From: Escherichia coli
GTDB lineage: Bacteria > Pseudomonadota > Gammaproteobacteria > Enterobacterales > Enterobacteriaceae
Strand: one strand, 5' to 3'
Assembly: GCF_044324785.1 (NCBI RefSeq)
Contig: NZ_CP172127.1
Length of the DNA: 64,000 nucleotides
Shown here: positions 43,802-45,524 of the stretch, one piece after another
Layout of the letters: the number at the start of each line of letters is the position of its first letter
How positions within the stretch are numbered: the stretch's first letter is position 1
Notes under the pieces: generated by a model
Told to the model about the DNA's origin: nothing
The model's database searches: none
Seen by the model: only the letters and a program-made list of their open reading frames with translations
Made by a program: the position numbers and the translations under genes

Positions 43802-43995
43802 GTACGGGCGTCCAGCCAGATGAATAAAACGCGCGCAAATATGCGTCATTTTTTGACGTGCATCAAGTTTTTTAACCGGTTTGAGAAGAAAACATCAAAC
43901 AGCAACTTGCCCTTATCCATCTTCAGAATGAGTATTATTGCGGATTTTCTTAACCCGTACTATACACATAGGGGCAATGATAAAAGGTGGCAAAA

Positions 43996-44091
43996 ATGAA
44001 TGTTTCCAGTAGAACTGTAGTACTGATAAATGTCTTTGCTGCTGTTGGTTTGTTTACTCTTATCTCTATGAGATTTGGCTGGTTTATTTGA
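43996..44091 (+). CDS. yncL: small protein YncL, 31 aa, single transmembrane helix
   Basis: MNVSSRTVVLINVFAAVGLFTLISMRFGWFI; not in ORF track (<60 aa), read directly from DNA. Confidence 0.7.
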   Translation: MNVSSRTVVLINVFAAVGLFTLISMRFGWFI

Positions 44092-44114
44092 TGTAGTGAT
44101 TTTGCACGCAGCAC

Positions 44115-44147
44115 GTACTGTCAGAGAAATCAACTCTCTGACAGTAC
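44115..44147. repeat. perfect 12-bp inverted repeat GTACTGTCAGAG / CTCTGACAGTAC with 9-nt loop, downstream of yncL
   Basis: seen directly; no flanking T-run on either strand. Confidence 0.5.
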
Positions 44148-44492
44148 ACAAGATCTTCTCATACTCTCCAGGTTTACAACATTATCCTTAATATTTACTT
44201 CTTTTTGCTGGCATCTACATTGAAATGAGTAGAAAACATCCCCCTACTGTCGTCTATACAAACAGCTTACTGATTCAAAGGGAATCTTGTTTTCACATTT
44301 TTCTATCATCAATACTTTAGACGCGCGGGAGTCTATAAATGCTTTATACTTTCAAGGAATAACGTAAATATAAAAAGATGGCGTAAAGTATATGCATGGC
44401 AGGATGATTGCAACCTCCTTGATGACGCTGTCCCATTGAAATTGCAAACCCCGCACTGGTTATCTTACTCATTTATCATGTAAAACAGACAA

Positions 44493-45302
44493 TTATAGGT
44501 CTCTGAATATCTCAGAAAGATTGAATTTTTTATAGTCCCTCTCTTGAATATTTCCATTTGATATCAATCGATTCATCTCTTCAACAAAATAATTTATATC
44601 ATCACATTTGTTATTATCCGGAAGATCTGAGTAATTATAATTCCACCACTTTATTCTCAACAATTCATCAATAATATTTGAATCAAATCTAAATCTGATT
44701 ATTTTTGCAGGAACTCCTGCAACTATGGCATATGGGGGCACATCTTTGGTAACAACGGAATTGGCAGCAATAACAGCACCATCACCTATTGCGATACCAC
44801 CTTTCAATACAACATCATTTCCTATCCAGACATCATTTCCTATAATCGGATTTTCAGGTTTGGTAATGAATGGTTTCAATGCCCAGCTACGTTCAAACTC
44901 ACTCATAGCAAACTTATCAAATTCACCGTTATAAGTCATCATGTGAGTAGTAAAACGATTCAAAGGATGATTTCCACCCATTATTTTTACATTTGATGCA
45001 ATACTACAAAATCGACCTATATGTATATTCCCTGTAAAATGACAGGTCGGAAATGAAAAAGCGCCGACACTGGAGAAATTTTTTACAGGCATTGTTGAAT
45101 ATTCTTCAGCAATAACATTATCTTCAATTGTTATCTTGTCACCTTTTGAGAAAAGAAATAAATTCCTTTCTTTATACGACTTCTTCCCCTTATGATTTAA
45201 AAAGATTTTATTATCCATACAAAACTCAAAGTGTTTTTTCGTCCACCTGAAGGTAAGGGTTTTATTTTTATCTTCCGTGAATTTATACAATTGAACTTTC
45301 AT
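44493..45302 (-). CDS. hexapeptide-repeat xenobiotic acetyltransferase, Vat/CatB-like, 269 aa (start uncertain)
   Basis: HIGRFCSI...GGNH...[75 protein letters not shown] closely parallels streptogramin A acetyltransferase motifs; strongly AT-rich. Confidence 0.75.
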   Translation of the reverse strand: [269 protein letters not shown]

Positions 45303-45524
45303 TGTTAATACTTCTACTTATAAATTATTAGGTTAATAACGATACTCTAAAGCCTTATGCGAATCAACTATGACAGGATGAAAAATCACCAACATACATT
45401 TAGATCATAATAACTGCCTAATTTTTCCGCTAGTTATTAATGTAATCATTCTGATACTTAATCACCATTACACTCAGAACCTAAAACGATAGTGGCCGCC
45501 CTATAACAGCCACTAACATTTAAC

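Follow-up and report, generated by a model that had tools for sequence, protein, structure and literature searches.

A solitary acetyltransferase island at the patD stop codon of Escherichia coli may encode an Orf11-type O-acetyltransferase of envelope glycans

Introduction

What is acetylated by the product of a solitary, AT-rich gene that about a fifth of complete Escherichia coli genomes carry between yncL and patD, and whose name recalls antibiotic-modifying enzymes? The gene lies in a 64,000-nucleotide stretch of the E. coli contig NZ_CP172127.1 (hereafter the window), as an 810-bp open reading frame (ORF) on the minus strand (44493-45302) encoding 269 residues, with the same coordinates in RefSeq. 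An initial annotation, made from the letters of the sequence, found this ORF and the motifs that we also see in its translation, assigned the protein to the streptogramin A (Vat) and CatB type of acetyltransferases, and proposed a resistance or detoxification role. The gene was already annotated in RefSeq and the enzyme is of a known kind, and a literature search by RefSeq protein accessions found no mention of it. What is new here is the exact borders of the island that carries the gene, its prevalence, and the reassignment of the closest characterised relative, which is now a sugar enzyme and no longer an antibiotic enzyme. Our favoured answer, to which we give roughly an even chance on the sequence evidence, is that the product would be an orphan, soluble, acetyl-CoA-dependent O-acetyltransferase of the Orf11 type, with a sugar hydroxyl in an envelope glycan as its acceptor.

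Results

The protein has the fold and catalytic residues of xenobiotic acetyltransferases

Pfam recognises only hexapeptide repeats (Hexapep) in the protein, and these tandem repeats, which form a left-handed parallel beta-helix, place it in the LbetaH superfamily. The AlphaFold2 monomer model (mean confidence, pLDDT, 89.9) finds VatA, VatD and CatB as its best Foldseek matches; it contains a helix at residues 127-136 inside the 113-150 loop and further helices from residue 208 onward, and the IKWWNY helix aligns with IKWWNW of VatD. The protein therefore has a catalytic His before a loop insert, a central loop with helices and a C-terminal helical segment, which is the arrangement described for the xenobiotic acetyltransferase (XAT) class, where the central loop insert carries helices and an alpha-helical segment follows the beta-helix (PMC7885111).

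The predicted general base, His112 (codon at 44967-44969, minus strand), aligns with His82 of VatD, for which the catalytic role and a list of antibiotic-contact residues are available from a fragment-screening study (bioRxiv 10.1101/2025.01.31.635826). His112 is invariant in our family alignment of 39 sequences (A1), as are the other catalytic residues and those of the CoA site. In the HMMER alignment, Trp159 corresponds to Trp121 of the VatD acetyl subsite, Phe82 to Tyr52, and Thr70 to the oxyanion residue Tyr37. The maximum Kyte-Doolittle value over 19 residues is 1.25, so the protein has no hydrophobic segment and should be soluble. Within the coding sequence lie two exact copies of a 14-nt sequence (ACATCATTTCCTAT), 18 nt apart (44812-44843); they reflect two consecutive turns of the hexapeptide helix at the DNA level and are not a separate element. 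The assignment to the Vat/CatB-like hexapeptide class thus holds, with the XAT fold and the catalytic His kept; the protein has the fold and catalytic apparatus of this class without being a member of the Vat, CatB or ApmA family.

The closest characterised relative is probably the Campylobacter sialate O-acetyltransferase Orf11

Homologues of the E. coli protein form a family of 255-280 residues, present in Enterobacterales and beyond, that shares an N-terminal segment (consensus FRWTKxHExFCxDNxIFL), a helical C-terminal extension of about 40 residues and, after the catalytic His, the motif H-P-x-x-R-F/I-T/S-T-x-x-x-T-Y. One member, from Campylobacter lari (38% identity), is encoded directly after cst-neuB-neuC-neuA and is 60% identical to a Campylobacter jejuni protein, P0127, whose cluster counts 1560 members and whose locus reads cgtA-cgtB-cst-neuB-neuC-neuA-X-glycosyltransferase-waaF, X being the P0127 gene. 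We equate P0127 with Orf11 by this locus position, which is the place of orf11 in class A/B lipo-oligosaccharide loci, and not by a published sequence. In the passages of PMC8319020, PMC3513307 and PMC2174954 that cite Houliston et al. 2006, Orf11 is an acetyl-CoA-dependent sialate O-acetyltransferase that modifies O-9 of terminal sialic acid in alpha-2,8 linkage, and of the outer alpha-2,3-linked one.

The E. coli protein aligns with P0127 from residue 66 to its last residue, 269, with 39% identity (E = 3e-45), and phmmer at equal database size gives 137 bits for P0127, 105 for VatD and at most 99.5 for CatB enzymes. The homology is thus of the full-length Orf11 type, takes in the C-terminal extension and is closer than that to Vat or CatB. 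In the loop after the catalytic His, P0127 reads HPMDRISTASFTY and agrees with the E. coli protein at H, P, R, T, T and Y; VatD reads HRMDGSTYPFNLF at this place and does not share the subfamily motif. Because Orf11 is the only characterised member of the subfamily that we found, a sugar hydroxyl is the likeliest acceptor. The initial annotation had named, as what would refute it, closest characterised homologues that modify sugars or other non-antibiotic substrates together with a lack of activity on any xenobiotic, and the first part of this is what the comparison returned.

P0127 also served as a control for the profile searches. Its NCBIfam scores (TIGR03308 110, Vat 100 and CatB 92 bits) come in the same order as those of the E. 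coli protein and are likewise below threshold, and its RefSeq names are 'CatB-related O-acetyltransferase' and 'antibiotic acetyltransferase'. Since a sialate enzyme gives this same profile, a sub-threshold Vat/CatB profile cannot separate drug-modifying from sugar-modifying enzymes. As an observation on the cluster itself, many of its members are shorter (137-256 residues) though they lie on long contigs, which suggests frequent truncation or phase-variable frameshifts of the C. jejuni sialate O-acetyltransferase gene.

Scores and contact residues argue against a drug substrate

The reading closest to the current names is that the enzyme detoxifies chloramphenicol, streptogramin A or another drug-like molecule by O-acetylation. 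Besides the XAT fold with its conserved catalytic His and acetyl-subsite Trp, it can point to the best matches among solved structures, which are VatD (105 bits over query residues 61-230) followed by VatA and CatB enzymes, to the RefSeq name 'CatB-related O-acetyltransferase' ('antibiotic acetyltransferase' in some records), and to the solitary state of the gene, which resembles that of many chromosomal catB-type genes. However, all NCBIfam matches fall below their curated cut-offs, those of the antibiotic families by a wide distance: Vat (NF000311) scores 124.4 bits against 300, CatB (NF000490) 107 against 350 and ApmA (NF000084) 83.2 against 550. The five antibiotic contacts of VatD, N92, L93, P103, L108 and P109, are replaced by M122, T123, S134, F145 and I146, so that none is kept, and the oxyanion Tyr37 has become Thr70. 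The gene is absent from the plasmids of PLSDB, where the single near-identical match (98.5%) is a 4.9-Mb record that is evidently a chromosome, and from phage records, and its PHROGs matches are to families of unknown function only. Moreover, the characterised sialate O-acetyltransferase shares both the match profile and the name, and E. coli is in any case intrinsically insensitive to streptogramins. We consider a drug substrate unlikely, and the proposal of a resistance determinant is unsupported in view of the failed Vat, CatB and ApmA thresholds, the lost streptogramin contacts and the absence from plasmid and phage records.

The same alignments bear on the architecture of the protein. Residue 61 corresponds to residue 28 of VatD and residue 230 to residue 192, which leaves a net surplus of about 33 residues at the N-terminus and about 22 at the C-terminus; an N-terminal extension of about 60 residues, as initially described, was an overestimate. 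We also considered an ApmA-type N-terminal domain and rejected it, as only the beta-helix core is aligned in structure searches.

Relatives lie in glycan loci and prophages, or stand alone

The favoured reading, a glycan-modifying enzyme of the Orf11 type, draws further support from the genomic places of several relatives. In Pectobacterium brasiliense (51% identity) the gene sits in the waa cluster for the lipopolysaccharide (LPS) core, flanked by outer-core glycosyltransferases, waaA and coaD; NCBIfam confirms a WaaI-type galactosyltransferase (476.8 bits against a cut-off of 461), WaaA (861.7 against 590) and CoaD (204.3 against 103.3). In Providencia rettgeri (55%) a prophage carries it, with a tail-fibre gene on one side and a glycosyltransferase gene of family GT52 on the other. 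The GT52 assignment rests on a precomputed Pfam match, neither this neighbour nor the tail-fibre protein having matched an NCBIfam family; GT52 includes bacterial sialyltransferases. A Kluyvera homologue (52%) is placed in a P2-like prophage right after the tail fibre and its assembly protein, and an Enterococcus homologue (37%) belongs to a teichoic-acid cluster. Together with Orf11, these places link the subfamily independently, at least four times, to the synthesis of envelope glycans or to prophage conversion regions, and never to resistance elements. A probe of the 80 loci from the genome-collection survey described below with sialic-acid and teichoic-acid genes gave few matches, in five loci, and was not systematic.

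Another enterobacterial homologue (56%; 6001-6786 of its locus) directly follows icd, which is a classic lambdoid prophage integration site, and this position fits a stranded prophage gene. In E. coli, too, the gene could be a stranded lysogenic-conversion gene, whose product O-acetylates a sugar of the LPS core, the O-unit or another envelope glycan in roughly every fifth E. coli or Shigella strain; we regard this narrower proposal as tentative and on the doubtful side. If it were true, these bacteria would carry an unrecognised, strain-variable surface modification that is independent of the O-antigen gene cluster, and phage adsorption or antibody recognition would be altered.

Other relatives stand alone. 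The gene is solitary in Citrobacter (78% identity), where it lies between unrelated genes, in Cedecea (71%), in Apirhabdus (53%) and in Rahnella (47%), as it is in E. coli. In Cedecea and Rahnella it comes directly after a chemoreceptor gene that ends about 155-180 bp upstream on the same strand; the sensor domains of the two chemoreceptors differ (4HB_MCP and dCache), and the pairing may be coincidence. In a genome-collection survey for other Escherichia, mostly distant XAT proteins were found among the matches listed, the only close relative among them being that of Enterobacter sp. Ag1 (70% identity).

These solitary genes and the two chemoreceptor neighbours fit a stand-alone housekeeping or detoxification enzyme that has nothing to do with surface glycans. 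Like LacA and Maa, it would acetylate a small metabolite in free form or a sugar that cannot be metabolised, or else the substrate of the TIGR03308 family. The phosphonate-associated transferases of TIGR03308 are indeed the best NCBIfam match, with 131.5 bits, and E. coli has precedents for solitary sugar acetyltransferases. Yet this score lies below the cut-off of 201.65, no phn genes are found near the gene (its neighbours are patD, ydcV, yncL and ortT), and the alignments with LacA and Maa (53-57 bits) are limited to some 50 residues of generic hexapeptide repeat. The four independent relatives in glycan loci or prophage conversion regions speak against it as well, and on balance we find a free metabolite or free sugar as acceptor rather improbable.

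The island ends exactly at the patD stop codon

In a BLASTN comparison, the window matches E. coli LF82 colinearly in two segments, at 43550-44197 and at 45524-45700, and not at all in between, which defines the extra DNA as 44198-45523, 1326 bp with 33.4% guanine plus cytosine (GC). In K-12 MG1655, patD and yncL are annotated 96 bp apart with ortT adjoining and no acetyltransferase gene is present, in line with the initial annotation. That annotation had drawn the AT-rich insert at 43850-45524. The AT-richness is real, with 28-37% GC across about 43900-45550 against about 52-56% in patD and ydcV; the extent is not, as only 44198-45523 is missing from K-12 and LF82, and 43850-44197 is native K-12-type DNA that happens to be AT-rich. 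This native part includes yncL (43996-44091, plus strand), supported by its ORF and by annotation in related genomes, and, between yncL and patD, a hairpin with a 13-bp stem (44115-44147; 100% complementary, with folding energies of -21.6 and -23.1 kcal/mol on the two strands) that is also present in LF82 and that, in insert-bearing strains, comes to lie downstream of the acetyltransferase gene.

The right border coincides exactly with the stop codon of patD (45525-46949, minus strand), which encodes gamma-aminobutyraldehyde dehydrogenase, as ORF and annotation agree, and is the upstream neighbour of the acetyltransferase gene. The two LF82 segments share an 11-bp overlap, which corresponds to a right direct repeat, CTTAATGTTTA (45524-45534), made up of the last three codons and the stop codon of patD (stop at 45525-45527), and to a left one, CTTAATATTTA (44187-44197), a degenerate copy of the same patD end. 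Direct-repeat similarity around the insert reaches 16 of 20 nt (80% identity; repeat family D1). Such a repeat is compatible with either a target duplication or short-homology recombination, and with gain as well as with loss of the insert.

In a repeat scan, no significant terminal inverted repeats were found at the ends of the insert, and the insert holds no transposase or integrase and no further ORF with a family match. An origin as a cassette borne on a transposon or insertion sequence was rejected, the imperfect 11-bp direct repeat being the only such feature; a mobile-element origin is also unsupported by phage records, in which neither the gene nor its flanks have a match. Rfam gave no match in the 221-nt leader or the 295-nt trailer at E values up to 1. 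The 3' non-coding part of the insert (44198-44492) lacks homology to the loci of Citrobacter and Cedecea. Its 295 bp carry 14 differences from strain 2012C-4221, whereas the 810 bp of the coding sequence carry about 10, so it is more diverged than the gene. Homology to the Citrobacter copy at the nucleotide level is confined to the coding sequence and about 80 nt upstream (44506-45383); from these alignments, the mobile unit is essentially the gene and its leader.

The patD neighbourhood varies among strains at more than one place, as LF82 also lacks intact curA and mcbR between pqqU and mnaT (LF82 1391-1614), where only pseudogene fragments, GntR-family and hypothetical, are annotated.

The island is widespread and its gene is kept by selection

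Of 5426 complete E. coli genomes searched by megablast with 43550-45700, 5415 have the flanks and 1154 the whole stretch; the insert alone matches 1158 (21%). A genome has one or two matches to the insert (median one), and the insert adjoins patD in all records inspected; in insert-bearing genomes RefSeq gives the gene between yncL and patD the CatB-related name noted above. The insert occurs as a 1326-bp form with about 98.2% identity to the window, as a 1313-bp form with about 96% that includes O111 Shiga-toxin strains, and as a rarer form with 92.9%; no complete genome exceeds 98.3% over the 2.15-kb stretch. Members of the protein cluster also come from Shigella flexneri, and Salmonella enterica has a partial homologue with 79% identity.

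Gene GC is 31-34% and GC at third codon positions 25-29% in both E. coli and Citrobacter; the copy in the window has 27.8% at third positions against 53% for patD. The low GC marks the gene as compositionally foreign. With 33% GC overall, a presence in 21% of genomes and homologues at unrelated sites in other genera, the island looks horizontally acquired, in agreement with the initial annotation. Synonymous divergence among the E. coli alleles reaches 0.23, which suggests long residence or repeated exchange, not one recent event.

Could the gene be a decaying, functionless remnant, a prophage moron or cassette that was stranded and simply lingers? It stands without partner genes, the coding sequence diverges more slowly than the 3' non-coding part of the island, many entries in protein databases are truncated, and some strains (H128 and H140) show insertions or deletions by the insertion sequence IS1. 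Against this, nearly every one of some 1150 complete genomes has the 269-residue frame intact, and the ratio of non-synonymous to synonymous substitution rates (dN/dS) is low, at 0.08-0.30 in pairwise comparisons of four E. coli alleles and 0.07-0.09 in comparison with the Citrobacter homologue, from which we conclude that the gene is kept by selection. The invariant catalytic and CoA-site residues point the same way, and many of the short entries are labelled 'partial' and come from contigs below 1 kb, so that they may be assembly truncations. A mere remnant is thus very improbable.

IS1 insertions or IS1-mediated deletions of the insert are present in a few strains. In E. coli cM2a (NZ_CM176588.1; 2501-3444 of the locus) the first 191 bp of the insert are left and are followed by IS1A beside patD, an arrangement that corresponds to an IS1-mediated deletion of the acetyltransferase gene; in strain PEC414 the gene is interrupted by IS1.

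The gene probably has its own promoter

The acetyltransferase gene follows patD on the same strand, as initially described, at a distance of 222 bp; co-transcription of the two had been suggested. Inside the insert, 10 nt after the patD stop codon, there is a terminator-like hairpin on the minus strand (45490-45515) with an 11-pair stem followed by TCGTTTTAGG; read from 45515 to 45490 and on into UCGUUUUAGG, it has a predicted folding energy of -19.7 kcal/mol (z = -5.07). A comparison of four E. coli insert alleles shows the stem preserved in each. E. coli and Citrobacter share a conserved block some 40-100 nt before the start codon (alignment A2), and the upstream stretch 45303-45383 (minus strand), which travels with the gene, would be its probable promoter and 5' leader. 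The hairpin and the shared upstream block make co-transcription with patD doubtful. These sequence features lead us to infer a promoter of the gene's own, with no more than partial read-through from patD.

Other regions of unusual composition in the window

Two further regions of the window stand out by composition. At 22000-33500, GC rises to 58-66% and the minus strand carries very large ORFs (1420 residues at 26781-31043, with others of 737, 673 and 607 residues near it), flanked by AT-rich DNA (31.5% GC at 21000-22000 and 41% at 33000-35000); this composition resembles that of an Rhs-type element. A second low-GC block (33-36%) at 4000-7000, with two plus-strand ORFs of 421 and 425 residues, may be another acquired island.

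Discussion

We propose that a single-gene island, probably acquired horizontally, was inserted at the patD stop codon and provides an intact, selectively maintained and soluble LbetaH enzyme, presumably a homotrimer of the kind that marks the XAT class, with active sites at the subunit interfaces. The enzyme would transfer the acetyl group of acetyl-CoA to an acceptor hydroxyl, with His112 as general base, as Vat and CatB enzymes do. The most likely acceptor would be not an antibiotic but a sugar hydroxyl of a glycan built at the cytoplasmic face of the inner membrane, for which the LPS core, the O-unit or a similar structure are candidates. Expression would probably start in the AT-rich region upstream of the gene itself and not depend on the patD transcript.

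Several points weigh against this proposal. The gene has no glycan genes near it in E. coli, Citrobacter, Cedecea, Apirhabdus or Rahnella, and embedding in a glycan locus is found for relatives in Pectobacterium, Providencia and Campylobacter, not for the E. coli gene; no NeuB, NeuC, NeuA, Cst or GT52 homologues are encoded in the 64-kb window. The 39% identity to Orf11 is too low to transfer substrate specificity. The Vat score of the E. coli protein (124 bits) is just about 25 bits above that of Orf11 itself, a gap that leaves the family roughly equidistant from several functions. We know of no O-acetyl group reported on the E. coli LPS core. Finally, the upstream region offers a weak sigma-70-like match (45351 to 45324), and such matches are no commoner there than in shuffled sequence.

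If the enzyme does modify an envelope glycan, then in about 20% of E. coli, O111 Shiga-toxin strains and some Shigella flexneri among them, an envelope O-acetylation would be encoded away from the known LPS and capsule loci, which would matter for phage host range, serology and vaccine antigens. Those who predict resistance genes should be cautious in any case: a Vat/CatB-like match profile and the labels 'CatB-related' and 'antibiotic acetyltransferase' are also attached to a proven sugar O-acetyltransferase, and this common accessory gene of E. coli should therefore not be counted as a resistance determinant without assays. The Orf11-type subfamily is without a solved structure, and the E. 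coli member would be an easy target for one.

How does the protein compare with known systems? With the Vat enzymes (VatD, 1KHR; VatA, 4HUS) it shares the XAT fold at 33-35% identity over about 170-190 residues, the catalytic His, the Trp and Tyr/Phe of the acetyl subsite and the C-terminal 'WW' helix; unlike them, it has a central loop that is 7 residues longer and extra N- and C-terminal segments, and it is not plasmid-borne. It differs from CatB and PaXAT (1XAT, 3EEV, 8J40) in being about 55 residues longer and in that its gene is not an integron cassette. ApmA is another XAT-class enzyme with an extra N-terminal region and a similar length of 274 residues (PMC7885111), whereas structure searches align it with the E. 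coli protein over the LbetaH core only (159-173 positions; Foldseek TM score about 0.4). Orf11 has in common with it the LbetaH core with the C-terminal extension of about 40 residues, the loop motif in the form H-P-x-x-R-x-S/T-T-x-x-x-T-Y and solubility; in contrast, the first 45 or so residues of the E. coli protein are unaligned, and its gene has no neighbours for sialic-acid synthesis or sialyl transfer. A last parallel is NeuO, the polysialic acid O-acetyltransferase of E. coli K1, which is a soluble LbetaH enzyme that modifies a surface glycan and is encoded by prophage CUS-3, a carriage that parallels the prophage-borne relatives of the E. coli gene in Providencia and Kluyvera.

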